Shown here: positions 3,385 through 30,537 of the stretch, piece by piece
Position numbering within the stretch: the first letter of the stretch is position 1
Layout of the letters: each line of letters opens with the position of its first letter
DNA from: a virus
Lineage: Duplodnaviria; Caudoviricetes
Length of the DNA stretch: 30,609 nucleotides
Reading direction: 5' to 3' (one strand)
IMG/VR virus record: IMGVR_UViG_3300038673_000372
Location: 1-30,609 of that record
Made by a program: the position numbers and the translations under genes
Notes under the pieces: generated by a model
What the model saw: only the letters and a program-made list of their open reading frames with translations
Database searches by the model: none
Told to the model about the DNA's origin: nothing

Positions 3385-3412
3385 TGCCAATAAAATCGTC
3401 GTTTTATTGGCA
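3385..3412. repeat. Palindromic gene-boundary site 1: TGCCAATAAAA-TCGTCG-TTTTATTGGCA
   Basis: Perfect 11-bp arms with a 6-bp spacer, between the stop at 3381 and the next RBS. Confidence 0.9.
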
Positions 3413-3417
3413 AGCAC

Positions 3418-5679
3418 TTGAAGGGAGTGATTAACATAAAAGAAATAATTATAACAGATTATACGCTTGAACCGAATGTCGGGTATGAAGGAGAGCATAG
3501 GTCAACAAATCTGAACATAAGGCTTACTAACGACCTAATATCAGAAAACATAGATTATTATACCATAGAGTTTAAGCCACAAGGTCAAAGCGTTATTCAG
3601 ACTGAGGCGCTTCAACAAGAGGGCGGTTATCTAACTATTCAACTTTGGCAACAAATTATGGTTTCAGGGATACTTGAGTTTCAGGTGATTGCTTGGAGGC
3701 TTGTTGACGGTGAGGTTTCAAAAATAGGGAAAAGCCCTATAATCAAAGTTAAAGTAGGCAAGAGCGTAAGTGGCGAATACGAGGAACTTGATGACAATGT
3801 TAGCGGGCTTATTGTAGAACTACAAAACCTTATTGCAAATTATCCTGTTCAAATGGGCGAATTTAATGAGGGTACAGAATGGAACTTTGAACTCGTTGAC
3901 GGATTGCTGAATATAACTTACGTTAAAGCAAAAGACGGAGAAGATGGTAATAATGGATTAACGCCAGAAATAGGGGAAAATGGAAACTGGTTTATAGGTG
4001 GCGTTGACACTGGAATTTTAGCAGATGTTACGCTTGATGAACTAAGGCACTCTCACGATAACAAAGAGGCTATAGACCAAATCACCGAACAAATGTTATC
4101 TGATATATCGGATAACACAAGCGCAAGGCACGAACACGACAACAAAGAAAGCGTTCTCGACGAACTTACGGTTGACGAGGGTGTTTTGAATTGGGAAGGA
4201 TTGCCTATTAGCGGTTCGTGGGCTTCAATTGTTGACACATACGGCGATTTGGCTGATGTTTCGGGCAATGTTGCTATTGTCCTGCAAGGGCGTACGGGTT
4301 ACAAATACCTCGCTCCGACAGACGGTAATCCGTTTCTGCGGTACACGAATTTATACTTAAACCCTGTGCCGATATTCATTGAAAGTGCGTTTGATATAGG
4401 CGCTACAAACATAGATATAACCGCAACAGACGGAACGAACACCGTAAACATTTATAGTGATGTCGTTCAGTTTGGCGATGAAGAAGCGGCGGTTTTGGTT
4501 GTTAGCATCAACGGCGTTTCTTATGTTTGGTCGTCATCTACGCTGACTTTCCCGTTGTTTCCTGCTCCGCAAGGTTGGTCATTTAGAGAGGAAGCGTCAA
4601 CATTCACGAAACTCTCACAACCTCCGACAATTCCAACGGGCGACTATGAGTTAGATATTACGCAAGGCGAGGCTGGTTGGGTGCTTAACGACACGCCATT
4701 TAACGCTTTTGCGGAAGTTTGGTTCAAGGAAGAGGGTCTGTGGAAACAATCCACAAAACGCCCTTGCATTGTGCAGGACATTGCAGATTTGCCCGAAAAC
4801 TTCGACGGCGAAAGTTGCATTGTGCTTAACGGGCAAACATACAAAGGTAATATGGAGGTAGGGACTTATGCGGAGTTGTTCATAAACCCGATACCGCGCA
4901 CAGAAAAAACCGATTTCTTGTACTTAAAAATAAAAGACGCAGAAAGCGACAACGAATATGAAATCATCGCCGAGCGGAACACAAGAGCTCCGGGGGGTGT
5001 GCCTGCATTTGCAAACGCGACACGCGAGGTGCAGACTTGCTCTGTGTTTGGTAACGGTATCGCTCCCGTCCTTGCGTATTTTTGGGCAAGCGACAAATTC
5101 GAAGGAACGCATTATGCGCTCGGCGATTTGACCTTTCCTCGCGGTTGGTCGAAAGCCGAATTGAACGGCTCGGATATAACCATTACGCCAATTTCTTACA
5201 CGGAACTTCCGACAATTTCTTACGGCATTATTACCGAGTCATTCCGCACGACCGCTGAATGCCTTGTTCGTGATACGCCTTACAACCCGTCGCCCGCAAT
5301 TTACTACCGCGCAAACGGCACTTGGTGTTGTGATAGTTATATTTCATTAGATAACACGAAACAAGATAAAGTATGGATTTACAATAATGCGTTAAAAACA
5401 GGTTGTGTTTATACGCATACCACGGTTGGCCCTATTGAGTTCATTTTACCCGCTCAGTTTGAAATGGACGCGACAAGAGGAACGACCGAGTTTTCAAGAT
5501 TTTACATTGACCTAAAAGTCACAAACGACGCCCACAAGGTTTCATTTAATGAGCCTGTAAAATGGGTTGGCAGTTTTGCACCGACTTTAACCGAGGGTAA
5601 CTGGTTCATCGAAGCGTTTTTCTCGCCCGTTGAGGAAATCTGGGTGCTGTTCGCCACATCGTACGGCTCGGCTGTTTAG
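3418..5679 (+). CDS. Tail-associated/receptor-binding protein with an N-terminal BppU-like region and a tandemly duplicated C-terminal domain
   Basis: 753 aa; 'GLTPEIGENGNWFIG' motif common in phage tail proteins; paired HxHDNK motifs; exact start codon uncertain. Confidence 0.65.
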   Translation: MKGVINIKEIIITDYTLEPNVGYEGEHRSTNLNIRLTNDLISENIDYYTIEFKPQGQSVIQTEALQQEGGYLTIQLWQQIMVSGILEFQVIAWRLVDGEVSKIGKSPIIKVKVGKSVSGEYEELDDNVSGLIVELQNLIANYPVQMGEFNEGTEWNFELVDGLLNITYVKAKDGEDGNNGLTPEIGENGNWFIGGVDTGILADVTLDELRHSHDNKEAIDQITEQMLSDISDNTSARHEHDNKESVLDELTVDEGVLNWEGLPISGSWASIVDTYGDLADVSGNVAIVLQGRTGYKYLAPTDGNPFLRYTNLYLNPVPIFIESAFDIGATNIDITATDGTNTVNIYSDVVQFGDEEAAVLVVSINGVSYVWSSSTLTFPLFPAPQGWSFREEASTFTKLSQPPTIPTGDYELDITQGEAGWVLNDTPFNAFAEVWFKEEGLWKQSTKRPCIVQDIADLPENFDGESCIVLNGQTYKGNMEVGTYAELFINPIPRTEKTDFLYLKIKDAESDNEYEIIAERNTRAPGGVPAFANATREVQTCSVFGNGIAPVLAYFWASDKFEGTHYALGDLTFPRGWSKAELNGSDITITPISYTELPTISYGIITESFRTTAECLVRDTPYNPSPAIYYRANGTWCCDSYISLDNTKQDKVWIYNNALKTGCVYTHTTVGPIEFILPAQFEMDATRGTTEFSRFYIDLKVTNDAHKVSFNEPVKWVGSFAPTLTEGNWFIEAFFSPVEEIWVLFATSYGSAV

Positions 5680-5690
5680 GGGGTGTCTAT

Positions 5691-6575
5691 ATGCTATTAG
5701 CACACGGCATTGACAGGATTTTAGGCGCAGGGACTGAAACGAACCCGTACCAAATCCGCACTCCAGCACAACTTGCGGAAATGCGGGATAATGTCAACGC
5801 AAATACAGGAAACTTCCAAACTGCTCATTATGTGCAGGTGTCTGATATAGACCTTAATGCGATTGACAATTGGACACCGATAGGAACTGACGCAAACCGT
5901 TTTGGTGGTGTTTATAACGGTAACGGCTACACCGTTTATAACTGTAAATGTCAATCGGTTGCGTTTGGTTTCTTTGGGCGTGTAACGGGAACAATAAAAA
6001 ATCTGCGTATTAAAGGCGGCCTTTTTACCTCGACAAATTCTGTAACGGTTGGTGGTGTTTTTTGTAATAGACTTATTGGTGGAACAATTAGTGGTTGTAT
6101 ATCAGATAGCACGATTGAAACACCTTTGTTGGCGGAGGTGGCATATGCAATAATAAGCGGCATTGCTGGCTCGATACAATTTGAAAACGGGACGATATCT
6201 GACTGTATAAATTATACAAGTGTGTTGTTAAATGGCGCAAGCACAGACTCAAGGAACTTCGCAAGTGGTATAGCAAGACAAGGTGCTGGGGTAGCCGCTA
6301 CAATTTTAAGATGTTTAAATGTTGGTTCTGTGCAGTGCACAACAACAATCGGGAGTGCAGATGCAATCTCTGAAAACGCCACGACAATCACGAATTGCTA
6401 TTTTGACAACCAAACATCAATCGCAACAAACGCAATCGCAACAGGCAGGACAACCGAGAATTGTCAAGGCCCTGACACTTTGACAAATGAGAATAAACTG
6501 CCGAACCTCGGCACAGAGTGGATTGCAACGGCAGGATATCCGTCGCCTAAGCGTTATATAACGAGAAAAGGCTAA
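5691..6575 (+). CDS. GLUG-like beta-helix protein (probable tail/surface protein)
   Basis: 'GAGTETNPYQIRTPAQL...SDIDL...WTPIG...FGGVYNGNGYTV...GFFG' pattern of GLUG-repeat proteins; ends 'GYPSP'. Confidence 0.65.
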   Translation: MLLAHGIDRILGAGTETNPYQIRTPAQLAEMRDNVNANTGNFQTAHYVQVSDIDLNAIDNWTPIGTDANRFGGVYNGNGYTVYNCKCQSVAFGFFGRVTGTIKNLRIKGGLFTSTNSVTVGGVFCNRLIGGTISGCISDSTIETPLLAEVAYAIISGIAGSIQFENGTISDCINYTSVLLNGASTDSRNFASGIARQGAGVAATILRCLNVGSVQCTTTIGSADAISENATTITNCYFDNQTSIATNAIATGRTTENCQGPDTLTNENKLPNLGTEWIATAGYPSPKRYITRKG

Positions 6576-6593: not shown

Positions 6594-7868
6594 ATGAGTA
6601 TTACAATACATAAAACACATCAAACTAAAAATCGCGCATATACTACAGCACGAAAAATGACACCGAAAGGAATTGTCGTTCATAGCACAGGCGCAAACAA
6701 TCCAGAACTTAGGCGATATGTAGACGCTCCCGCTATTGTCGGCGTAAATCAAAACGGAAATCACTGGAATGTGGTTCAACCAGCAGGCGCCGGGAAAATG
6801 GTTCACGCATTTATTGGATATGATAAAAATAAGAAAATTGTAGTTTGCGAAACATTGCCGCTCGATTATTGTTGCTTTGGATGTGGGCAAGGAAGTAAGG
6901 GCAGTTATAATTATAATCCCGCGTTCATTCAGTTTGAAATTTGTGAAAGCGCCCTTAATAATAAGGCGTATTACGAAGAGGCTATGCAAGTATCTATTGA
7001 ATATTGTGCTATGCTCTGCAAAAAATATAATATCCCAATTAAAGATGTTGTTGACCACGCAGAAGCGAATAAAAGAGGATATGCCTCAAACCACGGAGAC
7101 ATTGCACATTGGCAGAGGCTGTATGGTGACAATATGGATAAATACAGGAACAGGGTTTTATCCGCAATGAATTCTTCTGCTGTGTCTCCGCCACCTGTTA
7201 TTCCTCCAGCCGTACCCCCGACGCAACCTCAATCTGGATTGAAAAAGAGTGACAAGATTATATTGACAAATGCAAGCCTTTATAGTTCTGCTACAAACAC
7301 TGTGGTCGCAAGGAAAATAACCGGAACATATTATATTTATAGTGATCAGATTATAAATGGCAGAATTAGAATAACAAACAGCTTATCAAATGTAGGAAAA
7401 ACAAATGGCGTAACTGGATTTGTCAATATTTCTGAAATTGTGACTGAAAAACAAAAACAAGAATCTGACGCAAAAGCACTGGCGGACAAACTTGCAAAAG
7501 AGAAGGCTGAATCGGAAGCTAAGATGCTTGCTGAAAAGTTAGCCAAGGAAAAGGCTGATGCAGAGGCCAAAGCGCTCGCTGAAAAATTAGCAAAAGAGAA
7601 AGCCGATGCCGACGCTAAGGCGCTTGCCGAAAGACTTGCTAAAGAAAAGGCGGATTTAGAAGCTAAAATTCTTGCCGAAAAGATAGAAAAAGAAAGAATT
7701 GAAGCGGAAAAATTAGCCAAAGAAAAAGAGAGATTGGAGGAATTTGAAAGGCAAAAAATAGAGAAAGAGTTGAAGGAATTAGAGGATAGGCAAGAAACTG
7801 AATTTAAGATCCAGAATATAGTTCAGTCATTTTTCGATATAATCCTAAGGATTTTCGGAAAGAAGTAA
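6594..7868 (+). CDS. Endolysin, N-acetylmuramoyl-L-alanine amidase (Amidase_2-like), with a Pro-rich linker and charged helical repeat tail
   Basis: 'GIVVHSTG...HAFIG...IQFEICE...VVDHAE...SNHGD' Zn-amidase motifs; adjacent to holin-like genes. Confidence 0.9.
   Translation: MSITIHKTHQTKNRAYTTARKMTPKGIVVHSTGANNPELRRYVDAPAIVGVNQNGNHWNVVQPAGAGKMVHAFIGYDKNKKIVVCETLPLDYCCFGCGQGSKGSYNYNPAFIQFEICESALNNKAYYEEAMQVSIEYCAMLCKKYNIPIKDVVDHAEANKRGYASNHGDIAHWQRLYGDNMDKYRNRVLSAMNSSAVSPPPVIPPAVPPTQPQSGLKKSDKIILTNASLYSSATNTVVARKITGTYYIYSDQIINGRIRITNSLSNVGKTNGVTGFVNISEIVTEKQKQESDAKALADKLAKEKAESEAKMLAEKLAKEKADAEAKALAEKLAKEKADADAKALAERLAKEKADLEAKILAEKIEKERIEAEKLAKEKERLEEFERQKIEKELKELEDRQETEFKIQNIVQSFFDIILRIFGKK
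7461..7700 (+). repeat. Five 48-bp (16-aa) tandem repeats within the endolysin (xxxAKALAEKLAKEKA)
   Basis: Units start at 7461, 7509, 7557, 7605 and 7653. Confidence 0.85.
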
Positions 7869-8183: not shown

Positions 8184-8603
8184 ATGGATATTGATATTGC
8201 TGGTCTTTTGCAAATAGCAATCACTACGATAATCGTTCCGTTTGTAGCTTGGGGAGTGACCGAATTTACTCGTTGGATTAAAGAAAAAAGAGAAAATGAG
8301 GTTCTCGACAAATACCTAAAACTTGCAAGCGACTCTATAGTTACTGCTGTAGCAGATACAATGCAAGTATTTGTAGGTGCCCTTAAAACGGCTGGAGAGT
8401 GGAATGAAGAAACCCAGAAGGAAGCATTTGAAAGGGCGAGGCTTATGGCTATTGAACTTATGGGTGCAACCGTATGGCAAGCGCTCGATATGATCGTTAA
8501 AGATTCTGAGGCTTGGTTATCCGCTAAAATCGAACAGGCGGTTCGCGATGAAAAGTTAAAAGAAAAAGCCGCTGAAAACTGCATTGTGACAATCCACGAA
8601 TAA
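8184..8603 (+). CDS. Putative holin (LL-H-like)
   Basis: N-terminal TM helix; 'AVADTMQVFV..LK..G.W....QKEAF...IEQAV' pattern; RBS AGGAGG. Confidence 0.7.
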   Translation: MDIDIAGLLQIAITTIIVPFVAWGVTEFTRWIKEKRENEVLDKYLKLASDSIVTAVADTMQVFVGALKTAGEWNEETQKEAFERARLMAIELMGATVWQALDMIVKDSEAWLSAKIEQAVRDEKLKEKAAENCIVTIHE

Positions 8604-8611
8604 AAACAAAT

Positions 8612-8658
8612 AAATAGGGAACATAGATACGCTCTTAAAGCATTTATGTTCCCTATTT
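8612..8658. terminator. Bidirectional intrinsic terminator between convergent gene blocks
   Basis: Perfect 14-bp stem AAATAGGGAACATA / TATGTTCCCTATTT with A-rich and T-rich flanks. Confidence 0.8.
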
Positions 8659-8664
8659 TTCACG

Positions 8665-8690
8665 GCCAATAAAATTATCGTTTTATTGGC
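8665..8690. repeat. Palindromic gene-boundary site 2: GCCAATAAAA-TTATCG-TTTTATTGGC
   Basis: Perfect 10-bp arms, 3 bp past the stop of the 8694 ORF. Confidence 0.9.
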
Positions 8691-8693
8691 ACA

Positions 8694-9143
8694 TTATTCA
8701 ATTTCATCAATTTTTGCTTTTGCCTCTTTTAAGAATTTATCTATGTGTTCTATCACTTTGTCTTTTGATTTAACACCCTGAATTTCTATTTCTTGATAAT
8801 AATTAAGTTTTGAGAAATTGCAGTTGAAATCAAATAAATTATAGTCGTGAATAAAAATTGTTATATCTAAATCATAATTATCATTTTCAGATACAGAGGT
8901 TATTACTTTTTCATAAAGGTTGTCATTGTCGTCCACGGAATAAGATAGTCCATATTTTTCTAATAGTGCCGTGAACTCTCCGTCTCTTTTATCGCTCCTT
9001 AGCCAAAATATATGGTCTGAAACCTTTGTTTTTTCGCAGTCAAAACAGCGCAACTTGTATTTTACTGGATTTGAAAGTAGGCAAGTTACTTCTGTGTTAA
9101 AAGAACCGCACTCACATTGGATATGTTTATATCAATTAGCCAC
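8694..9143 (-). pseudogene. Zn-ribbon hypothetical protein with an in-frame TGA at codon 4 (ORF track reports only 8694-9053)
   Basis: RBS GGGGGA then GTG GCT AAT TGA TAT AAA CAT ATC CAA TGT GAG TGC..., in frame with the 119-aa ORF; the extension supplies the first half (CEC) of a CxC...CxxC motif. Confidence 0.6.
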
Positions 9144-9145
9144 GC

Positions 9146-9535
9146 TCAATCCCCCAGTCCTAAAAAACACTTATATTTGTTGATGACATAGCAGAAACTC
9201 TCGCTGAGAGTAAAAGCAAAAGACCCCCCATTGTTTCCTATGTGATCAAAAACCCTTATGCTTTGCTTGTCGTCTGTGCAAATGTATTCAACATCAAAAC
9301 TCAAGTCAAACAATTCTTTCCTTATGTTTTCGAGCACCTCTCTTGTATTCTCGTCTGACGATGTTTCGTATGTTTTTAATCTGTGCCTGTCATACCTGTC
9401 TAAGCAACAGATCAGAACGCCCATCGCCTCGTCGCTTGCATTTATAAGGTTTTCGAGTTTAGCCTTTGCGCCAAATCCGAGACAGTATGTTATTCGTTCA
9501 AGTATCTGTTCCTTAACTTCTTGTCTATCTATCAT
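9146..9535 (-). CDS. Hypothetical protein
   Basis: 129 aa; RBS GAGAGGA directly after palindromic site 3. Confidence 0.7.
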   Translation of the reverse strand: MIDRQEVKEQILERITYCLGFGAKAKLENLINASDEAMGVLICCLDRYDRHRLKTYETSSDENTREVLENIRKELFDLSFDVEYICTDDKQSIRVFDHIGNNGGSFAFTLSESFCYVINKYKCFLGLGD

Positions 9536-9548
9536 ATATATTTCCTCT

Positions 9549-9574
9549 CGCGATAAAATGTAGGTTTTATTGGC
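9549..9574. repeat. Palindromic gene-boundary site 3: CGCGATAAAA-TGTAGG-TTTTATTGGC
   Basis: Abuts the TGA stop (9575-9577) of the upstream gene. Confidence 0.85.
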
Positions 9575-10009
9575 TCATTCCTCTGCAATCTTATCGAGTT
9601 CCTCTTGAAGTTTAACCTCAAACTCCGCTTGTTCCTTTTTCTCGTTGGCTTTTCTGTCACACACCACGCAGATTTTCTTGCCCTCGACGCGAGGTTCTAA
9701 CTTGCATTTGGCACACACAGGAACATCTTGAACAATGAGGTCAGCATAGAAGAAGACCCATATCTGCTTAATGCCATCTTTTTTAAGGTTGATTAAGTCA
9801 GGTCGCCTGCTATCATCAGGATTAAAGAATGTAGTGAACAATGTGTCCTTGTTTTCTTCAACCCACGCTTTGTATTTAGAAACCATTTTAGGATATTGCG
9901 GATGATTTACGATGTGGTCGTAGTTGAGTTTAACGATTTTCCCGTCTGGAATATAACTGGGCTGATGCTGTCTTTCTCTAATTCTTGCTTTCATTCTTAT
10001 CCCTTTCAA
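9575..10009 (-). CDS. Hypothetical protein with C-terminal CxxC...CxxC
   Basis: 144-aa ORF; CAKC...CVVC; true start may be the second Met. Confidence 0.7.
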   Translation of the reverse strand: MKGIRMKARIRERQHQPSYIPDGKIVKLNYDHIVNHPQYPKMVSKYKAWVEENKDTLFTTFFNPDDSRRPDLINLKKDGIKQIWVFFYADLIVQDVPVCAKCKLEPRVEGKKICVVCDRKANEKKEQAEFEVKLQEELDKIAEE

Positions 10010-10313
10010 TTATCTCGTATTCTCTTTTTGCGGATGTGACCTCAATGTCATCGAAATAGTTTGATGTGCAATGCAAATAATCATAAGCAAGGTCTAGGTA
10101 TGGATCAATTTTGTTTCTCTGAGTAAATATCCTTTCTTTGAAGTCCTCATCATAAATTGGCTCTACAAGTATTTTTATTTGACACTTCAGTTCATCTATA
10201 TAACATCTGGCATCATAACAAAGCATCCTAAGTTCTTTGAAATCTTGTCCAGTGTATAAGATATAAAATATTGGCTTTAAGCGCCTCAACAAACCAATAT
10301 CGCTTTCTGTCAT
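9978..10313 (-). CDS. Hypothetical protein
   Basis: 111-aa ORF in a tightly packed minus-strand block. Confidence 0.65.
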   Translation of the reverse strand: MTESDIGLLRRLKPIFYILYTGQDFKELRMLCYDARCYIDELKCQIKILVEPIYDEDFKERIFTQRNKIDPYLDLAYDYLHCTSNYFDDIEVTSAKREYEIIERDKNESKN

Positions 10314-10318
10314 AGGGC

Positions 10319-10528
10319 TTATTTATCATTCCCGTCCTCTTCGAGTAAAGATTTTAATGTTTCCTCAATGTTTATCATAGACTTTTTAATCATAAGTTTT
10401 ATGATCTGGGTTTTGCGAATATAAATCGCTGCCCTTGAACTATAATAAAAAATGTTTCCAAATATCACAAGCGCAACAATAGATATTATACTTGTAAGAT
10501 ATGGATGCCCCATACACCACTCAAACAT
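10319..10528 (-). CDS. Small membrane protein
   Basis: 69 aa with one N-terminal hydrophobic helix. Confidence 0.65.
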   Translation of the reverse strand: MFEWCMGHPYLTSIISIVALVIFGNIFYYSSRAAIYIRKTQIIKLMIKKSMINIEETLKSLLEEDGNDK

Positions 10529-10542
10529 CTCTCTTACCTGTT

Positions 10543-10683
10543 CTAATTAGTTTGCTCAACGAGCTTGTATTTATTGCCGAGCATAACATACCGATACTGC
10601 TTTCCTGAAAGTTCGAATGTGTATTTCTCGTCATATCTGCAACGCCGGATTTGCTTTTTTCTGTTTTCTCTGCTGAAACTCAT
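10543..10683 (-). CDS. Small basic hypothetical protein (46 aa; not in ORF track)
   Basis: RBS AAGGAG then ATG: MSFSRENRKKQIRRCRYDEKYTFELSGKQYRYVMLGNKYKLVEQTN*. Confidence 0.6.
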   Translation of the reverse strand: MSFSRENRKKQIRRCRYDEKYTFELSGKQYRYVMLGNKYKLVEQTN

Positions 10684-10823
10684 AATCAATCTCCTTATCA
10701 GTGAACATTATTATATAGTCATCAAGGCGTCAAGGATTACTTGTCAAGATAAAGTAAAGTCCACTTTATATTATCTTTGACTTTTATCTGCCATTTAATC
10801 AGAATTTTTTGATTTTTTCTCAG

Positions 10824-11039
10824 TTAATTATCCGGCAAGTTAGGACAAACTACATAGTCCTTATCAAAATCCTCAAAAGAAACCACCGTGAAAAATCCAG
10901 TCGAATCAAATATGGCAACATCTCCTTTTTTCAAAAGTTCGGTTATTGCTCTAAACTTTTTTTCGCAAAGCCAACTTGGTTTCTCGTCATACCCTACCTT
11001 ATAATGCTGACAAACATCAGACCGTTTAACGCAAATCAT
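10824..11039 (-). CDS. Hypothetical protein (probable start MICVK; ORF track extends it to 11114)
   Basis: The ATG at 11114 is only 2 nt from the -10 box, whereas GAGGA precedes the ATG at 11039. Confidence 0.6.
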   Translation of the reverse strand: MICVKRSDVCQHYKVGYDEKPSWLCEKKFRAITELLKKGDVAIFDSTGFFTVVSFEDFDKDYVVCPNLPDN

Positions 11040-11042
11040 ATA

Positions 11043-11106
11043 ATTCCTCATTTCAGTAAATACTTGCAGTTCTTGCAAGTTATTCCTCATTTCAAGAAAC
11101 ACTTGC
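11043..11106. repeat. Two 25-bp direct repeats (39-bp period) flanking a small palindrome
   Basis: ATTCCTCATTTCAGTAAATACTTGC and ATTCCTCATTTCAAGAAACACTTGC (22/25 identical); ACTTGCA-GTTCT-TGCAAGT lies between them. Confidence 0.75.
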
Positions 11107-11116
11107 GACTTCATAC

Positions 11117-11145
11117 ATTATACCATATTTTCAACTATTTGTCAA
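11117..11145 (-). promoter_or_regulatory. Consensus sigma-A promoter with extended -10
   Basis: TTGACA-17 nt (ending TGG)-TATAAT. Confidence 0.85.
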
Positions 11146-11272
11146 TACCATTGTTTGTGTTCTCTGTTTCTTCTCTTTCTTTTTTGCACTTAGGACACTC
11201 GTGCCAGTTCTTTATCGCGGGCTTTTCAAAACAAACAACACACATTTTCTTATGGTCTCTCACATTCAACAT
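11135..11272 (-). CDS. Small Zn-finger-like protein (45 aa; not in ORF track)
   Basis: RBS AGAGGT; MLNVRDHKKMCVVCFEKPAIKNWHECPKCKKEREETENTNNGIDK*. Confidence 0.6.
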   Translation of the reverse strand: MLNVRDHKKMCVVCFEKPAIKNWHECPKCKKEREETENTNNGIDK

Positions 11273-11294
11273 AACAAAATAATACCTCTTTTAT

Positions 11295-11321
11295 GGCAAT
11301 AAAAACCAGCGTTTTATTGGC
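11295..11321. repeat. Palindromic gene-boundary site 4: GGCAATAAAA-ACCAGCG-TTTTATTGGC (7-bp spacer variant)
   Basis: Between the stop at 11330 and the RBS of the 45-aa ORF. Confidence 0.85.
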
Positions 11322-11329
11322 TCGTTATT

Positions 11330-11767
11330 TTAACCCTCGTATCTGCTGAGTTCGTCCGCATAATCAGATTCAGTATCAATGGAAAAACCCCTATCCTCAA
11401 CCTCTGGTTCTTCGCCATGTTTTTCTTCAAGCGTCATATCCTCTTGAGCACTCATATATACAAACTTATTAAAATATGTCTCAATAACCTCGATGACCTC
11501 ATCTGATGTAGAACAAACCCTTACTGCGTATCCTTGGTTTGTGAGCCTTTCTATCCACCTTGCCTGATCCTCGGTAGGAGTTTTAGACGGATTTAAGGAA
11601 AAACAGACGAATAGCCCTGCAAAGTGGTGCTTCTTTACTGGTAGAAAAAGGTCAGGAATGCCGGGGTCGTAAGACCTTATGTTGAACAGCGACCCTAATT
11701 CGTAGTATGTGTTCTCCCTGAACGAAACCCAATAAAAAACTTTTCTTAATATCTCTGCCTTAGTCAT
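11330..11767 (-). CDS. VRR-NUC-like protein with a degenerate active site
   Basis: 'GIPDLFLP...GLFVCFS...PTEDQARWIERL..QGYAVRVC' matches VRR-NUC, but the usual ExK is absent. Confidence 0.7.
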   Translation of the reverse strand: MTKAEILRKVFYWVSFRENTYYELGSLFNIRSYDPGIPDLFLPVKKHHFAGLFVCFSLNPSKTPTEDQARWIERLTNQGYAVRVCSTSDEVIEVIETYFNKFVYMSAQEDMTLEEKHGEEPEVEDRGFSIDTESDYADELSRYEG

Positions 11768-11824
11768 AAATCCCTTTCTTTCAGTTATAACTGAAAAACT
11801 CTGTTTTATGTTATCATTCTTAAG

Positions 11825-12055
11825 TTATAAATGACATCTTTCTATCAGTTTTGATATGATAAAATCATAATCATAATGCGGAATAATGCAATCGGAGCAG
11901 TCTTTTATTCCGTTAAACAATTTATGTGTTCCACCGCAATCCTCAAAAAAATAAAGAGGACAAAAACAAAACTGACAACTAAAATTCTTACAGTCTTTAA
12001 TTTTGTGGCAAGGAAAATATTCACATTCGCTATTTTGAAAAAATCTGTAATTCAT
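11825..12055 (-). CDS. Cysteine-rich small domain (zf-like) protein
   Basis: MNYRFFQNSECEYFPCH...CQFCFCPLY...DCSDCIIPH; ATG at 12055. Confidence 0.85.
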   Translation of the reverse strand: MNYRFFQNSECEYFPCHKIKDCKNFSCQFCFCPLYFFEDCGGTHKLFNGIKDCSDCIIPHYDYDFIISKLIERCHL

Positions 12056-12138
12056 TCTTGTTTCCGGCAAGGAGATCCAGACTTCTTAAGTCTTGGAGGA
12101 ATTGCCGTTCCTTCCTTCTAAAGCGGTAGGTGATTGAC
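12056..12138 (-). mobile_element. 83-bp internally deleted IS200/IS605 (IscB-type)-like remnant
   Basis: Minus strand reads GTCAATCACCTACCGCTTTAGAAG...GGCAATTCCTCCAAGACTTAAGAAGTCTGGATCTCCTTGCC...|ATGAA. Removing it gives a TAATG stop/start overlap. Confidence 0.55.
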
Positions 12139-15100
12139 TATGAACACTTACTCCAGCCACAGGCTTTGCAAGATACGCAACCGCCCTCTGCAACCATTTG
12201 CTCTTGACACTCAGGGCATAGTTGTCCGTTGTTCAGTTCTTTATCCTCGACATCTAAAAGTCCGAGTTCATCAAGAACTTCTTTGTGCATATCGAGCAAG
12301 GCGTTTCCGATAGCCATAGGACAGCACGAACCTTTTGAGGTATCTTTTGCTGTTACCTTTCTAACTGCGTAAGACGGACAAACGCCACAACTATCAAGTT
12401 GATTTATGATAGATTTAATATCACAGCCGGCTCTTGCTGAAAGCGAAATCATACGGGATAATCCGACCATAAAATTGTTGCATCCACCTGTGCTACCTTT
12501 GCTAAGGTATGTCTCTAATAAGTCCCCGTTGAACGGATCGAAAAACGCGATGCAGTGTAGACTCCCACACCCTGTCGTCAGTTTTCTCTTTTTGCCAACG
12601 ACATCATTGTTAATCTCATAGATGAACCCTCGGCCAAGTTCCTTTTGTGGACTCACGGGCTTTTCCTTTTTATCGTCTGTTGTCAAGATGCCAAGTCGTT
12701 TGCACCCGTCTCTGAATATTGTAATGCCCTTTAGTCCTTGTTCCCAAGCGTACATATAGAGTTCTTCAACTTGCTCAACCGTGAATTCGTTAGGAACATT
12801 TACGGTAGAACTGATAGAAGCATCAATGTACCTTTGCCAAGTTGCCTGCATATCAATTCTGTTGCGTAATGCAATATCCTTTGATGTTACAAAATAATCT
12901 GGCAATTCTGATTCGTCTGTCAGACCAAACCTTTGCATATATTCCTCTACGATTGGTGTGTAGACCTTATAGGCAACATCCTTGCCGTGTAAAGATTCTG
13001 TTTTGCGTGTGTATGAGTTAGCAAAGATAGGCTCTATCCCAGAGGAAATACCAAGCATTGTTGCGATTGTTCCGCAGGGAGGGATAGTCAACAGTTGAGA
13101 ATTGCGAAGTCCACACTCTTTAAGTTTGTCTTTATAAAAATTATACCCAAGGTTATCTTTGTAAAATTGTGATTTAATTATATTTTCGAATGAATATTGA
13201 GGAAATGATTCCGCATTCTTTGCTAATTCACAAGATTTGAGGAATGCGCTTTCTAACATACAAGATGCTATATCTCCACATATTTTAATAGCCTCAGAAC
13301 TTCCGTATTCCACGCCTAATTTGATAAGCATATCTGAAAGTCCCATAATTCCGCAACCGATTTGTCTCCAGTTCTTAACGCTTTCTCTTTGCTCCTCTAA
13401 CGGGTGCAGAGGCAATCCCTCGTCAAGAATATCATTAAGTCCCTTTACAGCAATCTCTACAGTTTTTTCAAAAGCCTCATAGTTAAATTCTGCGTTTTTT
13501 GAAAATGGATTTTCTACAAACTCTGAAAGGTTTATGCTTCCGAGAAGGCAAGAGCCACCGGCAGGGAGGGGTTCTTCGGCGCAGTTATGAGCCACAAACC
13601 CATTAACCACGCCCCAGTGGGTAGATGGCTCCGTAAAGTCATAAACTTTTTCCACCCCTATATCTTTTATAGATATAACATATGGTGCTCTCATCATAAG
13701 CGTACAATATAAATTATATGTTTTATACTTTTGGCAAAACCCTATTTCGTGAAAAAAGGCGAACAACCCATTAAACTTGTAAATATTTACATCATAACTT
13801 TCCCTGCAAACATATTCCCCGTTTGAAAAAATGTTATTTTTTGATTTGTTGGTGGTTATATAAGAAGAAATCCCAAAATCTTTTTCTAATGTTTCTGAAA
13901 GTTGACGAGCAAAATTTATGGAGGTTGTTTTGTATTGGACTCTTCTGCTATACTTGTTTTTTGAGTTTAAACAACACCCATTCGCAGAATAACACCCGCG
14001 AAGAAAACTTGCTTTTTCTATTAGCCCCCAACTATTATAAGTTGACGGAAACTCTCTATTTAACAACCCCTCTTGAGAAAAGCCAAGGTCTTTAAGTTTT
14101 TCATTATATCCAGATAAATATATTACGCGATTATTTTTTCCCATAGAATAAACATCATCACGAAAAAGGTCTAACACATCTGAGTCGTTTTTACCAATGT
14201 TAACCTCTATGCCTTTGTGATAATTAGACTTCAGTCTTGTCAGTTTCCCGTTCCCCTGTATAAACCCGTACTTAACAAAATCCTCTATGTGAGAGTGAGA
14301 TGTTTTTAAAAAGGGCATAATTTTTTTAGATTTAAGACCCGATGCGATTGATTTTTGCATATCTATTGTTAAGAAAATATGGTCTGGGGTACACTTTATT
14401 TTTTCCCCGTTTGAAAGGGATAACTCGATTACTTGCTTAACCCCAGTTTCCCATACTTTGCCTTTCGAATTTGACCCTAGGTATCCAGTGACAAAAAAAT
14501 CCTTGCCACATAATTCTTCAAATGTTCTGTATCCCCCTGATGTTAAAAGTTTCATATCACCAGTGAAACAAGGATTAGTTCCCGCAAACTCAAAGTTTTC
14601 TGTTTTGCTCAAGAGAGACCAGTTTTTAATCCTATCCCAAAACAAGCAACCGGGTTCAGCATAATCCCAGTTTGCCTCAGCAATTTTTCTGAATAGCGCC
14701 TTTGCTTTAATGGGAACGCTAATTGTTTCCCCAGAAGATTCTCTGGTGTGTTCTAAGTAAAAAATCTCATCATTTTTTACCGCGTTCATAAACTCGTCTG
14801 TGACTTTAATAGATAAATTTGCCTTGTTTATTTTACTAATGTCTGTTTTAATTTCTATGAATTCTTCGATGTCTGGGTGAGAACAATCAATGGTGATCAT
14901 CGCTGCCGCCCTGCGTCCGCCTTGTCCGATCAAAGATGCTGTTAAATCATACAATGCCATAAATGACACAGCGCCACTGCTTTTCTTTGCCGTGTTGTTA
15001 ACTTTTGCCCCTCTCGGAGCAAGTTTAGAAACATCAACACCACTACCACCACCATAACTATATGTACGAGCCATTTTTTTAGCACAATCATATATTGATT

Positions 15101-18143: not shown

Positions 18144-18147
18144 TTCG

Positions 18148-18918
18148 TTAATCCTCCGTTTTATCGTTTCTTGCCTCATATCCGTATGATTCGGCTATTG
18201 TTGTTATTTCGGCTGCTCTGATAGGAATGAGCTGCCGTTCCTTATATAAATCCCTTCCAAGCAGACCGTGGAGTACGATGTACTTATCTGTCTCAAGCAG
18301 ATTCGGATTTTCACTCAAAAAAGCATTCACTCGCTCCAACATCGCAGGCTCTGTCAACTGCACCAAAGTTGAATCAATGTTGTCGATCTCATTGGCATCG
18401 TAAAGTTTCTTTAGACTGTTCAACATTCCGAGCCAGTGATACAGGACTTTTCGCTTTTCGGCATCAGCCTCTTCCTGCGTCATTTTTGTACCAGCTTTCG
18501 GCTGCCTTACGGCAACATCCGTACTCGCTTTTGATTTCGCAAGGACTGCGTCCGCTTTCAGTTCTTTTGATGTCAGAGCCTCTTTCGTGCGGCGATAAAA
18601 TGGAACGATATGCTCGTGCCACACATTTGGAAGCACCTCATAAAAGAAGATGTCAACGGCTCTATCAACAATGATTTCGGTGGCTTCCATCGCCGTATCA
18701 CGGACAGTGTCTTTGATGTAGTCCTTAACAGGAGAACTTTTTCTGACAGGGGCGGCGGGCGGTGAAGAAGTTCTCTGCTGAACCATAGGTGTATTTTCTA
18801 CATAGTGCTTCAGTTCCCTCAGAACCCTGTGAGGCTTGCGATTCATGAGCCGTCCGTACTCATCGATAAAAGCCTCGTCACTTTTCCATTTCACAAAAAG
18901 CTCATCGTCGGGAATGAT
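18148..18918 (-). CDS. Hypothetical protein, probably 5'-truncated at the insertion junction
   Basis: Frame stays open upstream of GTG 18894 (IIPDDELFVKWKS...) up to the junction; no clear RBS. Confidence 0.6.
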   Translation of the reverse strand: MIPDDELFVKWKSDEAFIDEYGRLMNRKPHRVLRELKHYVENTPMVQQRTSSPPAAPVRKSSPVKDYIKDTVRDTAMEATEIIVDRAVDIFFYEVLPNVWHEHIVPFYRRTKEALTSKELKADAVLAKSKASTDVAVRQPKAGTKMTQEEADAEKRKVLYHWLGMLNSLKKLYDANEIDNIDSTLVQLTEPAMLERVNAFLSENPNLLETDKYIVLHGLLGRDLYKERQLIPIRAAEITTIAESYGYEARNDKTED

Positions 18919-19099
18919 ATAATGTAGGAAAGCATCGAGTAATTGCCCAATCTTTAATATCCTCTATGTCTACGGAAAGTCCGTGTCTTTTGTTTAAGGC
19001 GCTTACCCAATGAGACACCAAATCTATAAGAACATCATCAAGGTCAAAGGTAATTCTAAAAGAATGTGCTTTCGCCTTTTGATTTTTCTGTTTCGGCAT
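18919..19099 (-). pseudogene. 5'(3')-deoxyribonucleotidase, N-terminal fragment
   Basis: HAD motif I 'ITFDLDDVL'; ends ...DWAITRCFPTL and then runs into a stop inside the insert. Confidence 0.88.
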
Positions 19100-20410: not shown

Positions 20411-20436
20411 GCCAATAAAACTCAAGTTTTATTCAG
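20411..20436. repeat. Palindromic gene-boundary site 5: GCCAATAAAA-CTCAAG-TTTTATTCAG
   Basis: Between the stop at 20461 and the purine-rich RBS-like AAGGGGGA. Confidence 0.85.
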
Positions 20437-20897: not shown

Positions 20898-20923
20898 CCA
20901 AATAAAATACAGATTTTATTGGC
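20898..20923. repeat. Palindromic gene-boundary site 6: CCAAATAAAA-TACAGA-TTTTATTGGC
   Basis: Intergenic, upstream of the MazG-like gene. Confidence 0.85.
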
Positions 20924-21212: not shown

Positions 21213-21238
21213 ATTAGCCCTCCTTAAAGAACTCTATC

Positions 21239-21267
21239 ATTATACCATATTCCCAGCTTTTTGTCAA
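21239..21267 (-). promoter_or_regulatory. Consensus sigma-A promoter with extended -10
   Basis: TTGACA-17 nt (ending TGG)-TATAAT; the -35 overlaps the dnaE stop codon. Confidence 0.85.
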
Positions 21268-26422: not shown

Positions 26423-27190
26423 CTACCCTCCCCACATCATATTTTTGTATTCACAATGGTCGCATACATCGCAAAGATAATTGCATTTGAAATAATCAAT
26501 GCGAGGCGACCAGTCCTCGTTGTCAATAATTCTTTCTATCATTCGTTTAGCCCACTGCTTTGTTTCCTCAAACTTTTCAACATCAAAATCTTCCTCAACC
26601 CAACTTGACTTAAAGCAGTTGAACGCAAGTTTTTCCGGTGGCGCTTTATAAATGTCTATGACTGGTATGCAGTAAAGATAAAGTTGTCTCAGATATTCGT
26701 CAAGTAGTTTGTCTGTTTTTGTGGGCGTTTTTCTTTTGCTTCTCGGCTTCAAATCTCTTGATTTGTGGTCGAGGATAATTTTTCCGTCGTCAGCAACGGC
26801 ATCAATTATTCCGATGAAATTATATCCGTCTAAACTAAAATCGCATTTTAGTTCGGTCGAGATTTTATCCATATAAGGGAACTCTATGTTGTCAAAGTAA
26901 TCAATACCTTTTTTATAATAATTAAAATAAATATCCGTCGATGGCGGACTTCCTCTAACAGTAGAAAAGAAGTTGGAGATGTAATAGTTAGTCAACTCGT
27001 CTTTTTGAATCTGACCGCTCAAATACATCTCCAGTATTTTATGCACTAAACTTCCGTATTCAGCAAAGAACCCCGGACTTGATTGCACTTCTTTTATGTA
27101 TTTCAGAAACCACCCATATCGGCAATCTCTGAAACTGTTAATTCTTGAAAAACTCCACCGCATATCCTTTATAATAAGGCTACAGTTCAT
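26423..27190 (-). CDS. PD-(D/E)XK (RecB/Cas4-like) exonuclease
   Basis: SFSRIN...C...GSLVH...GIID...ILDHKS; C-terminal CNYLCDVCDHC. Confidence 0.85.
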   Translation of the reverse strand: MNCSLIIKDMRWSFSRINSFRDCRYGWFLKYIKEVQSSPGFFAEYGSLVHKILEMYLSGQIQKDELTNYYISNFFSTVRGSPPSTDIYFNYYKKGIDYFDNIEFPYMDKISTELKCDFSLDGYNFIGIIDAVADDGKIILDHKSRDLKPRSKRKTPTKTDKLLDEYLRQLYLYCIPVIDIYKAPPEKLAFNCFKSSWVEEDFDVEKFEETKQWAKRMIERIIDNEDWSPRIDYFKCNYLCDVCDHCEYKNMMWGG

Positions 27191-27206: not shown

Positions 27207-27632
27207 TTAAAACGGAAGGTCGTCGCTATCGTCAACAGGCGCAGGGACTTCATTTTCAGTAGGCTTTGTTGTTTTTGTGGTCTTTACAGAATCCTTGCTC
27301 TCAGATGACCTCTTTTGAATTTGAATAAAATCAATCTCAACCTCTGTTTTTGTTTTTTCCTCCCCATCTCTTGAGGTATAAGTAGATGTTTTCTCTACCC
27401 CAGTTACAAACACCGTATCTCCTTTAACGATTTCTTTTGCGATTTCCGCATACTGTCGCCAAGCGATACAGTTTTTCCATACGGCAACTTTATCATCACC
27501 AGTTCCTGTTTCGCCAACTTTTATAGAAAATTTAACGAGCAGAGAACCCTTTTCGCCCACTATGAAACTTTCAGCATCACGCGGAACGAACCCAGAACCA
27601 ATAGCCTTACCGTCTTTTGTTACAAGAAACAT
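27207..27632 (-). CDS. ssb: Single-stranded DNA-binding protein
   Basis: OB-fold pattern (WKNCIAW...KGDTVFVTG) and acidic tail DDSDDLPF. Confidence 0.9.
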   Translation of the reverse strand: MFLVTKDGKAIGSGFVPRDAESFIVGEKGSLLVKFSIKVGETGTGDDKVAVWKNCIAWRQYAEIAKEIVKGDTVFVTGVEKTSTYTSRDGEEKTKTEVEIDFIQIQKRSSESKDSVKTTKTTKPTENEVPAPVDDSDDLPF

Positions 27633-28354
27633 TATTTGTTTCCTCCTTTATTTTTGTTTATATATTCCTCAGTCTTTCGCAGAACCTCTGCCGCCATTTC
27701 AAGGTCTTTAATCTTTGCAAAGTTTGCAGTAGGCGAACCATTAACAGTAATTACAGACTCGAAAAAGTCTGTGATAGCTTTTCTTTTCTTTTCATCTTTG
27801 CCACAATATGCTTTTGATAATTCGCCTATCTTCTCAATAAGGCCATTCAAAATTCTATTATTTTCAGCGTCCTCTGCCTCTTTTTTCTTTGCGTACCACT
27901 GATCTGCATCATCATCAGCAACAGTAGCAACATTAAAATACTTCAAGAGAAAGTATCGAGATGAATAAGATAGCCCAGAACCAAACGCTTTGCTTGCATC
28001 GTCTTGATGTCCTACAAAGAACCAAGGCACTTCAAGTTTGTCGTTCCTGTCTGAATTATTGTACCAAGTATAAACCATATCCCCATAGACAAAAATCTCG
28101 CTGACGGTTTTCTCTATTTTATCACCGCTCTTTGCAAAACTAATGTTGTTGTAATTATTAAGAACAACCCTATTCGTTCCTTGAACAATAGACGGAACAA
28201 GGGATATGTTGTATTTTTCCATACCCGCCAAAACCTTTGCTAAAATTTCATCCTCAGGAACATACTTGTAATTATATCCTTTCTTGCTCTGTTCCATAAC
28301 CTCGACCAGACCACGAATTTTAGCAAGTTTTTCTAACAATGTCAACTCTGCCAA
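27632..28354 (-). CDS. ERF-family single-strand annealing protein
   Basis: GYNYKY...KAFGSGLSYSSRYFLLKYF....DDDAD. Confidence 0.85.
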   Translation of the reverse strand: MAELTLLEKLAKIRGLVEVMEQSKKGYNYKYVPEDEILAKVLAGMEKYNISLVPSIVQGTNRVVLNNYNNISFAKSGDKIEKTVSEIFVYGDMVYTWYNNSDRNDKLEVPWFFVGHQDDASKAFGSGLSYSSRYFLLKYFNVATVADDDADQWYAKKKEAEDAENNRILNGLIEKIGELSKAYCGKDEKKRKAITDFFESVITVNGSPTANFAKIKDLEMAAEVLRKTEEYINKNKGGNK

Positions 28355-29086: not shown

Positions 29087-29326
29087 CTATTCATCCTTTC
29101 TTTCGTATTTTGCTATCAACCTCTTTGGAATATACAGAGTTCCACACTCCGAACAGGCTAATATGTCACCAAGAATAAGAACATTGTAATCCGTTTTACA
29201 AACGGGACAACAGTCGCCTATCATAGTTGAGAATTTGCAATCCTTGGACGAGCACATCCACATTTTTTCGTCATCGGATATATACATTAAATTAGAACAC
29301 GCCGGGCATTTTTTTAAATTTTTCAT
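29087..29326 (-). CDS. Small double Zn-ribbon protein
   Basis: CPAC, CSSKDC, CPVC, CSEC; overlaps the methylase stop (ATGA). Confidence 0.7.
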   Translation of the reverse strand: MKNLKKCPACSNLMYISDDEKMWMCSSKDCKFSTMIGDCCPVCKTDYNVLILGDILACSECGTLYIPKRLIAKYERKDE

Positions 29327-30036
29327 TGAACGCCACCTATTCTATCTATCTTAAATAATCTTTCAACACCTTTCTTGCTTCCAGTGTCTTTGGTCAAACT
29401 GCTTACTATTTCTTTTTCAAATACGCACTTAAAATCATCTGGCGCGTTATATTCACTAACATAAACAATATGACCGTCTATCACCTTTTTCCTACACCAA
29501 TTAAAAAAATCTAAATGGTTAAAACCATTAAGATACTTTGTCGAATTAGCGTACGGGGGGTCGCAATATATAATACTATTTTTTGGAATATCTAATTGAG
29601 AATAGTCGCAAGTTAAAAGTTTTACTCCTTGTAGGCGTTTACTTTGTTTTACTGCGTTTCTGTATGCCTCTGACACATAATCTCTTTTCCCATCAGAATC
29701 TCTGCTCCACCCGCCAAGCCATTTGCCACCATAACTAAACGCAAATCCAGCATATCCCTTGTGTTTATACTCTTCGCTCGCTCTTAATTGTTTATAGTCC
29801 CCCTCAGTAAATTCGCTGTTATCCTTTGGGAGTTCGTGGACAAAATCTCTAATAGAAACTAATGCGTCTATGACATATTTGTTTGAATCAGACCCAATTC
29901 TTTCGCCAGAAACTTTATCTATGGTGTTTCCACCGCCGACAAATGGCTCAACCCAAACTTGATTGTCTCTTTTTTCGGACAACATAATAGGAAGTATATA
30001 TTTAGAAATTCTTTGCTTACTACCCATATATTTCAT
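29323..30036 (-). CDS. Dam-like (D12-class) N6-adenine DNA methyltransferase
   Basis: MKYMGSK, EPFVGGG (motif I), YCDPPY (motif IV), VSEY. Confidence 0.88.
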   Translation of the reverse strand: MKYMGSKQRISKYILPIMLSEKRDNQVWVEPFVGGGNTIDKVSGERIGSDSNKYVIDALVSIRDFVHELPKDNSEFTEGDYKQLRASEEYKHKGYAGFAFSYGGKWLGGWSRDSDGKRDYVSEAYRNAVKQSKRLQGVKLLTCDYSQLDIPKNSIIYCDPPYANSTKYLNGFNHLDFFNWCRKKVIDGHIVYVSEYNAPDDFKCVFEKEIVSSLTKDTGSKKGVERLFKIDRIGGVQ

Positions 30037-30049
30037 TAAGTAAAATATC

Positions 30050-30496
30050 CTATTTCCTTTCTCCTTTTATTGCCTCTTCCTCCGTAAGATAAACCAAACT
30101 AAGAGGAACTTCTCCCCAGTTGTTTTCAAAGTAAACTTTAGGCTCTACAAATCCGAGTTTCGTATCTCCGTATATCCGTTTAGGGTGAGTATTGGTAATC
30201 GACATATATACAGACACAACCCTATCTTTAACGCCTATAAACTTTTTGCCAATTTCGCTCTTTCCGTTTTCGTCGCAATACGGACAATCTAATTTCATAA
30301 CAGAGCCAGAGTATGTAGTCTTGATAGTTCCCTTGCCACCACAAACGGAACAGATTTCAAGAATTGGAACCTCTTGTCTGATGTACGCGATTTTACCAAC
30401 CTCAATGCCTTTCAGATAAGATTTAAAAAGTTCCTTTGCACTTTTCTTTTCTTCGTCCGTGAGTTCGTATAAGGTTTGTCCGCCGTCTATATCCAT
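30050..30496 (-). CDS. Hypothetical protein with DnaJ-like CxxCxGxG motif
   Basis: CSVCGGKG...CPYC; ATG 30496 follows AAGGAGGAG (ORF track start 30538 runs through palindromic site 7). Confidence 0.7.
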   Translation of the reverse strand: MDIDGGQTLYELTDEEKKSAKELFKSYLKGIEVGKIAYIRQEVPILEICSVCGGKGTIKTTYSGSVMKLDCPYCDENGKSEIGKKFIGVKDRVVSVYMSITNTHPKRIYGDTKLGFVEPKVYFENNWGEVPLSLVYLTEEEAIKGERK

Positions 30497-30509
30497 ATTT
30501 TCTCCTCCT

Positions 30510-30537
30510 TGCCAATAAAACTTATGTTTTATTGTCA
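30510..30537. repeat. Palindromic gene-boundary site 7: TGCCAATAAAA-CTTATG-TTTTATTGTCA
   Basis: Between the stop at 30542 and the RBS of the next gene. Confidence 0.9.

Follow-up and report, generated by a model that had tools for sequence, protein, structure and literature searches.

Dispersed palindromes with individual centers are candidate module-exchange sites in SPbeta and other large Firmicutes phages

Introduction

An old open question about phages is whether their mosaicism arises through dedicated joints or only through relaxed homologous and illegitimate recombination. Here, the question is raised by a viral contig, the Caudoviricetes record IMGVR_UViG_3300038673_000372, in which palindromes made of two inverted arms around a short, variable center are dispersed, most of them at gene boundaries. 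We call the whole stretch of DNA analyzed the window; it comprises the complete record of 30,609 nucleotides (30.6 kb), an estimated ~23% of the phage genome. A sequence-only reading of the window had listed seven such palindromes and proposed that they delimit exchangeable accessory-gene cassettes. What kind of site are they, and which enzyme might act on them?

We find, by motif comparison, that the window palindromes are the local version of a family-wide site, T[A/G]AAA-N6-TTT[T/C]A, whose outer arms are lineage-specific (GCCAA in the window phage). In relatives, swaps of flanking genes coincide with such sites, and a clade of tyrosine recombinases, that of SPbeta YomM, appears to track them; we treat this last association as a lead. 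These comparisons incline us, a little beyond even chances, to read the sites as crossover points with individual centers, at which a YomM-type recombinase would trade modules in order between same-center sites of two phages. New in this analysis are the candidate enzyme clade (YomM), a second core (TGAAA-N6-TTTCA), and, in the window phage, a clostridial-type variant of the site that has distinct outer arms and copies inside a gene.

Results

Nine palindromes in the window

The seven listed copies are present, with the coordinates and centers given for them, and we find two more, at 1075 and 2794, that had been missed (Table 1). Conservation of the inverted arms is partial: among the listed copies, those at 3386 and 8665 are perfect (GCCAATAAAA-N6-TTTTATTGGC), while the other five carry one to three mismatches per 20 arm bases. 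With a 6-bp center and up to three mismatches, the pattern matches the window nine times (the 11295 copy being counted in a reading shifted inward by one base), whereas 40 dinucleotide shuffles give 0.00 matches on average. The invariant part, ATAAAA-N6-TTTTAT, has eight exact occurrences against 0.06 expected. Arms of 10 to 11 bp around a 6-bp center, found in eight of the nine copies, fit the layout of dif and lox sites (inverted arms of ~10 to 13 bp, center of 6 to 8 bp), and the tyrosine-recombinase-like anatomy ascribed to the sites holds. A center of 6 bp is the norm, since the only longer one is 6 bp in contigs of two other sequencing runs.

In public collections, the full-length exact 26-bp pattern occurs 0 times in viral contigs, 26 times in metagenomes, and 16 times in genomes. 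All 42 matches are single copies unrelated to the window; the GCCAA outer arm is thus a lineage mark. We reject the 42 as related sites and regard them as chance matches or terminator hairpins.

Gene bodies leave 7.9% of the window uncovered, and seven of the nine centers fall there (binomial P = 6e-7; two genes were given their likely starts, behind ribosome-binding sites), which bears out the intergenic enrichment proposed as a check. The stronger claim, that every copy lies at a gene boundary, fails because the two added copies lie in frame inside the tail gene, on a permissive N/D-K-I-x-I/V protein background. At the first of them, two homologues have residues that are incompatible with the right arm, and neither shows a break, so the in-frame copies were probably gained in the lineage of the window phage. 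A role of the in-frame copies as module joints finds no support, with no break in the two informative homologues of three (P0122 aligned through residue 483; P0123 ends at 147). No copy lies in the Erf-SSB-exonuclease-primase-dnaE block or the methylase insert, as had been observed.

Table 1. Palindromic site copies and associated genes in the window.
Feature	Position	Strand	Center	Remarks
Site copy	1075..1100		TTGTAG	Perfect 10-bp arms GGCAATAAAA/TTTTATTGCC; in frame in tail gene, residues 72-80 (GNKIVVLLP); absent from the sequence-only reading
Site copy	2794..2819		TTACAG	19/20 arm bases; in frame in tail gene, residues 645-653 (ANKITVLSA); absent from the sequence-only reading
Site copy	3386..3411		TCGTCG	Perfect; 4 nt past tail gene stop, ahead of next ribosome-binding site
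Site copy	8665..8690		TTATCG	Perfect; at convergence of late (+) and early (-) arms
Site copy	9549..9574		TGTAGG	Stop codon on one side, ribosome-binding site on the other
Site copy	11295..11321		ACCAGCG (7 bp)	Center 6 bp (one base fewer) in contigs of runs X4 and X8
Site copy	20411..20436		CTCAAG	Right arm (TCTGAATAAAA read inward) matches SPbeta outer-arm consensus
Site copy	20898..20923		TACAGA	Intergenic; downstream of dnaE and a 79-amino acid open reading frame
Site copy	30511..30536		CTTATG	Immediately ahead of ribosome-binding site
Tail/virion structural gene, 839 amino acids	862..3381	+		Two in-frame site copies and two lone half-sites (2526-2535, 3123-3132)
Erf-family single-strand annealing recombinase gene	27632..28354	-		Agent of the main rival mechanism (see Discussion)
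SSB gene	27207-27632			After Erf gene
PD-(D/E)XK exonuclease gene	26423-27190			After SSB gene

A family-wide core in related phages

A primase-based search returned 81 loci, and the core is conspicuous in L066 and L108-L122. TAAAA-N6-TTTTA occurs 34 times in SPbeta (2.35 expected), 30 times in E3 (5.7), and 22 times in Nate (1.6), as well as 22, 13, and 12 times in genomes G001, G003, and G004 (1.3, 0.7, and 2.0 expected). Six SPbeta relatives (two of them partial) carry 30 to 37 copies each. Enrichment peaks at a spacer of 6 in all of these, and no other center length is enriched. Annotated gene boundaries cover 17% of the SPbeta genome yet include 30 of its 34 sites. One Clostridia genome, examined over 1 Mb, has no excess of the core (28 at N6, 28 at N7, and 28 reversed).

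We also find a second core. TGAAA-N6-TTTCA is the top signal of an unbiased dyad search in MT835469 (25 versus 1.7); counting both cores, this phage has 48 sites, 38 of them at boundaries. The variant recurs in KKP_3916 and G018 (10 sites each; control 0), and G017 has 13 sites with both cores. The second core explains several exceptions to the association of the sites with YomM (see below). Sharing of centers between distant lineages is not significant (18 versus 12.8 +/- 3.4), and one of the nine window centers recurs there.

Two observations stand apart. At position 74483 of the BUCT083 record (L180), the center is TGGGTA, against TTCCCA in orthologues, which is close to the reverse complement and a possible center inversion. 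The Brevibacillus phage Sundance record (L392-L398) carries another repeated palindrome, AAATACATGTATTT, which is operator-like and clustered at 3.8-7.0 kb and 110.9 kb.

Gene exchange at the sites

Breakpoints of gene gain and loss in relatives fall at the sites, as the sequence-only reading had anticipated. We clustered the 60-nt flanks of 232 sites from seven SPbeta-like genomes and find that 36 of 116 left flanks are joined to at least two different right flanks; for 33 of 120 right flanks, there are likewise at least two left partners. Across six relatives, homology breakpoints occur at 27 of 30 SPbeta gene boundaries with a site versus 55 of 140 without (odds ratio 13.9, P = 3e-7). Restricted to short gaps in the variable arm, the comparison gives 15 of 15 versus 32 of 78. 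Boundaries with one-mismatch sites, excluded from the main test, have breakpoints in 10 of 13 cases. Furthermore, 54 of 411 alignment ends fall within 25 bp of an SPbeta site, against 5.2 expected.

Where one flank is shared and the other unrelated, we score a swap event; there are 97 such events, which are pairs of flank clusters and not independent phylogenetic events. The center is identical in 85 of them and differs by at most one base in 93. In 82 events, exact identity runs no farther than 6 nt from the core, and in 62 it extends only 0 to 2 nt beyond the 16-bp core. The unrelated flanks each bring an outer arm matching TCTRRW. In the clostridial-type group (14 loci), center CCGATA joins four left and six right flank clusters and CGGCAC joins four right ones, and three centers within conserved genes never swap. 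Crossover at matching centers, as at dif- and lox-type sites, is what we find here by comparative genomics of relatives only.

The proposal of an excisable cassette array fares less well. No two copies in any genome have the same center (0 in 13 sequences), and cassettes with matching sites on both sides are thus nowhere apparent; the majority of breakpoints fall away from the sites, and two window copies lie inside the tail gene. Exchange between two phages at a same-center site fits these sequence patterns better than excision and insertion within one genome.

Junctions beside the window's own sites come from contigs of four sequencing runs, compared with each half of the window; those reported are among the matches listed. 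Three are from run X4. Divergence begins at 9570, 1 nt past the core of the 9549 copy; different sequence lies between 30506 and 30512, with identity beginning 4 nt outside the core of the 30511 copy; and 8699-9139, the gene to the right of the 8665 copy, is replaced, with identity ending 13 nt past the core.

A further lead comes from SPbeta and phi3T. A nonhomologous junction has been reported "following yosA" (10.1101/2020.05.06.055103). We consider this junction a lead because the SPbeta site at 116415, beside yosA, and the phi3T site at 107932 have the common center TATTCC. Separately, blocks fully identical between SPbeta and phi3T (L123/L139/L140 and hybrids) often start or end at a site (starts at 104632 and 29375; ends at 106012 and 119045).

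A candidate enzyme

As had been noted, no recombinase is encoded in the window: none of its 36 open reading frames (ORFs) matches a tyrosine recombinase family, and a YomM-clade profile run against six frames finds nothing. We therefore turn to relatives, taking 32 recombinase-fold proteins from 11 records plus two stretches of phage c-st. Their tree splits into an MrpR clade, a YopP clade, integrases, and a YomM clade (support 94/88, not starred). Of the three recombinase-fold clades in SPbeta, that of YomM alone spans all site-rich lineages examined, with members in the SPbeta-likes, E3, Nate, AM1, c-st, and G001, and a split member in G004. The clade conserves Arg, His-x-x-Arg (Lys in three of eight), His/Trp, and Tyr, and its members score far below the cutoffs for XerC, XerD, XerS, and XerA. 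No solved structure is close to YomM; the best match of the G001 protein is an archaeal XerC-like recombinase (4a8e).

In a forward test, we compared six further phages with a YomM-clade gene and five Herelleviridae without one. With TAAAA alone, two of the six are clearly enriched: phiCD211 (26 versus 12 and 7) and a Staphylococcus SPbeta-like phage (17 versus 4 and 8). SEP9 is weak (10 versus 3.3 expected; reversed control 9), and three are not enriched. Overall, enrichment is clear in 11 of 15 YomM-bearing lineages (eight of which had supplied the proteins that built the profile), weak in three (AM1, SEP9, and fragment G010), and absent in one (Sundance). Of 19 records with no full YomM-clade hit, comprising 14 primase relatives at least 73% complete and the five Herelleviridae, 18 show no site excess, with LP65 among them borderline (4 versus 1 and 0), and the other, G021, has five TGAAA-type sites.

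As a separate observation, the YomM-clade gene adjoins a gene for an HU-like DNA-binding protein (a yonN homologue) in G001 (37228-38547) and in G004 (13148-13983), where it is split.

Other features of the window

On the + arm of the window are genes for tail proteins, an amidase, and a holin. Small genes lie on the - arm, together with those for a ribonucleotide reductase that contains an intein, for methylases, dnaE, a primase-helicase, the exonuclease, SSB, and Erf. The top named dnaE matches are Clostridium phage c-st, Geobacillus E3, and large Bacillus and Lactococcus phages, at 38 to 42% identity. There is no close relative in the searched collections: the best primase match is 60% (viral contigs), and the search with the tail protein gave no match. 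A contig of 69.8 kb on record encodes the same tail protein. Sequencing runs containing the window derive from bioreactor, digester, and wastewater samples, and those listed include no RNA run. Searches for transfer RNAs and against Rfam gave no match.

Two segments missing from some runs encode methylases. The NT5C (5'-nucleotidase) gene, at 15373-19099, is interrupted, with halves at 15373-15627 and 18902-19099. The insert of ~3.1 kb encodes an N6/N4 DNA methylase, a truncated restriction-like ORF, and a 248-amino acid ORF. A contig of run X5 lacks it, joining 15777 to 18920, and the insert ends are not at palindromes. The Dam-type methylase gene (29323-30036) is cleanly missing in runs X4 and X8 (joint 29340-30053), and neither end has a full site.

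After the site at 3386, a 753-amino acid ORF has a strong ribosome-binding site (AAGGGAGTG) followed by ATA AAA GAA, with no ATG (3412-3445), which suggests an ATA or ATT start, or a mutated start. The amidase endolysin (6594-7868) ends in 16-residue AKALAEKLAKEKADAE-type repeats with a 48-nt period. Ribonucleotide reductase (12138-15359) contains a LAGLIDADG intein and a TSCPD domain. A sigma-A-type early promoter occurs in two copies on the - strand (11116-11145 and 21238-21267), the first matching 12 of 12 consensus positions with TG; contigs of run X3 have loose ends around this first copy, at 11050-11145.

Discussion

If the palindromes are crossover points, each arm would be bound by one recombinase subunit, and strand exchange would take place across the 6-bp center, which defines cleavage and exchange in Xer systems (PMC5357621). 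Because matching centers would be required, the only partner open to any one site would be the corresponding site of a co-infecting phage or of a prophage. A pair of such crossovers would exchange the intervening genes without deletion, inversion, or reordering of the genome, and unequal centers would shield each genome from self-deletion. Rare mismatched events would give rise to deletions, for which there are three candidate junctions with clearly different centers. The recombinase gene of the window phage is predicted to lie in the unsequenced three quarters of its genome.

Several observations weigh against crossover by a YomM-type enzyme. Within the window's relatives, the X4 insertions at 9579 and 30506 show no second site in the 30 letters given of their far ends, and at least four junctions lie off sites: 1824-2932 (a deletion within tail repeats), 10683-10724, 15777-18920 (the methylase insert), and 29340-30053 (the Dam gene). 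Of the 186 breakpoint clusters in SPbeta, only 34 have a site, strict or relaxed, nearby. Crossovers cannot be placed in four laboratory SPbeta/phi3T hybrids, whose identical blocks span 1.4 to 18 kb, and one 39-nt crossover interval in such hybrids has no site. The lack of duplicate centers is itself not significant (0 versus 1.8 expected, P = 0.16).

The enzyme raises difficulties of its own. It is missing from the 23%-complete window contig, and Lys replaces the second catalytic Arg in YomM of SPbeta, E3, and Goe11. SPbeta MrpR shows that a recombinase fold can turn into a pure repressor (PMC10516654). The core was widened to TGAAA after TAAAA had succeeded in only two of the six predicted phages. 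G021 has five TGAAA-type sites and no full YomM-clade hit; Sundance, although its YomM-like gene is intact, lacks clear sites (0 TAAAA, 1 TGAAA, and 6 mixed); and G004 and KKP_3916 have sites but a split YomM-like gene. Finally, the 14 YomM-negative relatives represent few clusters and are mostly richer in G+C; the link between YomM and the sites is thus a lead, not proof.

The foremost alternative is that the palindromes are regulatory or DNA-organizing sites of a dimeric phage protein, possibly YomM as a binder only, like MrpR, and that swaps pile up passively through Erf- or Sak4-type annealing at the conserved 16 to 26 bp. We think this unlikely, with an appreciable chance of being right. 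It would account for in-gene copies without a module break (2 of 9 in the window, 5 of 22 in G001, and 7 of 9 in AM1) and for the many copies immediately ahead of a ribosome-binding site; the window itself encodes Erf and an exonuclease. It also has precedents: 23 to 27 bp of exact pairing suffice for Red-beta (PMC3945230), MrpR binds dispersed elements (PMC10516654), and mycobacteriophages have dispersed repressor sites that block elongation (PMC9283540). However, the motif differs from SPBRE, the element bound by MrpR: in our comparison, the ten MrpR target promoters listed in PMC10516654 share AATATGTAT (10/10), not TAAAA-N6-TTTTA. Repressor motifs are phage-specific (10.1101/2025.11.27.690993), whereas the core is constant across phages with differing repressors (YopR is 30% identical between SPbeta and phi3T). 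No copies lie at the two perfect sigma-A-type promoters near 11117-11145 and 21238-21267, and the 0 to 2 nt of identity past the core in most swaps is shorter than annealing proteins favor.

Two other explanations are weaker. The sites could be scars or targets of homology-independent recombination, which we take to resemble that of Tn916, with single genes inserted or deleted and the center inherited from either partner. Three junctions with a clearly different center (two to five mismatches), some equal to that of the next downstream site, and the X4 insertions with a site at one end only are what this would produce; yet it predicts a changed center in about half of the swaps, against the identical center in 85 of 97, and no gene is flanked by duplicated centers, which makes it improbable. 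RNA hairpins, whether terminators, processing stems, or translation-control stems, are more improbable still. On the chosen strand, the expected hairpin does form in six of the nine window copies (z -3.5 to -5.5), the two-sided change in the 1075 copy preserves pairing, and two SPbeta copies overlap GenBank stem_loop features (2622-2651 and 116406-116431). The other three form no stable version of this hairpin (9549, z 0.25; 11295, z -0.22; 20411, alternative fold), there is no U-tract and no terminator call in 8500-12200, and immediately to the left of 8665 is a different, longer hairpin that does have a T run. Family-wide, the outer arms are mostly unpaired, leaving an A:U-only stem of 5 to 6 bp, and the loop is strictly 6. 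Intrinsic terminators, which consist of a G+C-rich stem and a U-tract behind it, are rejected in particular: the stems are not followed by a T run, the three copies scanned for terminators give no call, and three of nine copies do not fold as the hairpin, in line with the poor fit recognized earlier.

How do the putative crossover sites compare with known systems? Sites at gene boundaries, often overlapping a stop codon, and unequal centers that would block recombination within one molecule recall integrons (attC/attI with IntI) and heterospecific lox/FRT cassette exchange. Exchange between heterospecific sites is, to our knowledge, known only as a laboratory tool. Unlike integrons, the phage sites have no attC-type hairpin with extrahelical bases, no attI, and no adjacent integrase. 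We reject an integron cassette array for the window: there is no integrase in the 36 ORFs, the 26-bp palindromes are symmetric and occur over both arms and inside a gene, and there is no Rfam match.

Among Xer systems, the pdif sites (dif modules) of Acinetobacter plasmids, which use host XerC/XerD, share many copies per replicon, a 28-bp layout, conserved inner and variable outer arms, a variable 6-bp center, and clustering at accessory genes (PMC6449649). Invariant inner arms, variable outer arms, and a 6-bp center are general to dif sites (PMC6449649, PMC5357621). By contrast, the arms of the phage sites are symmetric T[A/G]AAA and appear not to be XerC/XerD boxes. The phage sites also lie on phage genomes, including core genes, and are not enriched in the one host-type chromosome tested (1 Mb). 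Their candidate enzyme is phage-encoded, and each center marks a fixed position common to related genomes. XerH/difH and XerS/difSL offer another parallel, in which a single tyrosine recombinase uses a pair of inverted arms whose center-facing ends are GAAAA/AAAA (PMC5357621), the phage enzyme being a candidate. Theirs is one site per chromosome, for dimer resolution with FtsK (PMC5357621), whereas the phages have dozens, with differing centers.

Two phage systems are also similar. SPBRE, with its binder MrpR (YopR, SroF), is a dispersed intergenic element of the same phage group, and the binder has a tyrosine-recombinase fold (PMC10516654, 10.1101/2025.11.27.690993). SPBRE is asymmetric, located at promoters, phage-specific, and bound by a catalytically dead monomer, whereas the core described here is symmetric and family-wide; given the promoter comparison above, we reject identity of the two. 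The PeSLs of T4-type phages are dispersed between small accessory genes and are associated with module shuffling in related phages (PMC2839356). However, PeSLs are promoter-plus-terminator units that recombine within a genome and make mini-circles (PMC2839356), whereas the phage sites are 16 to 26 bp long and promoterless and have their own centers. Within 8500-12200, the stretch covered, the sites do not qualify as PeSLs: the sole perfect promoter (11145-11117) is ~150 nt from the nearest copy, and there are no terminator calls. As tested by these comparisons, the site class does not belong to integrons, SPBRE, or PeSLs, and probably not to XerCD/pdif, and would work like dif modules or heterospecific cassette exchange.

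The site class is wide and apparently unpublished. In the literature searched, we find no paper describing a TAAAA-N6-TTTTA motif and no mention of yomM; subscription papers, including the original SPbeta genome paper, are outside the searched text. Taking the lineages together, we tentatively propose, at slightly less than even chances, that large Firmicutes phages including SPbeta possess a dedicated gene-trading machine. This would consist of a YomM-type recombinase and dozens of mutually incompatible sites that address modules, which co-infecting phages would swap in register. The arms would drift by lineage (TAAAA/TGAAA cores, GCCAA/TCTRRW outer arms), and new sites would be recruited in frame inside tail genes.

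The candidate joint and the candidate enzyme are both present in SPbeta, the model phage of Bacillus subtilis 168, and the question of how mosaicism arises is thus experimentally approachable. If the proposal is true, it would give a function to the conserved gene yomM and provide a recombinase with many natural orthogonal sites. It would also explain how accessory, defense, and metabolic genes move among large phages of Bacillus, Clostridium, and Staphylococcus, and it would supply the dedicated linker for which the modular theory of phage evolution has long looked.

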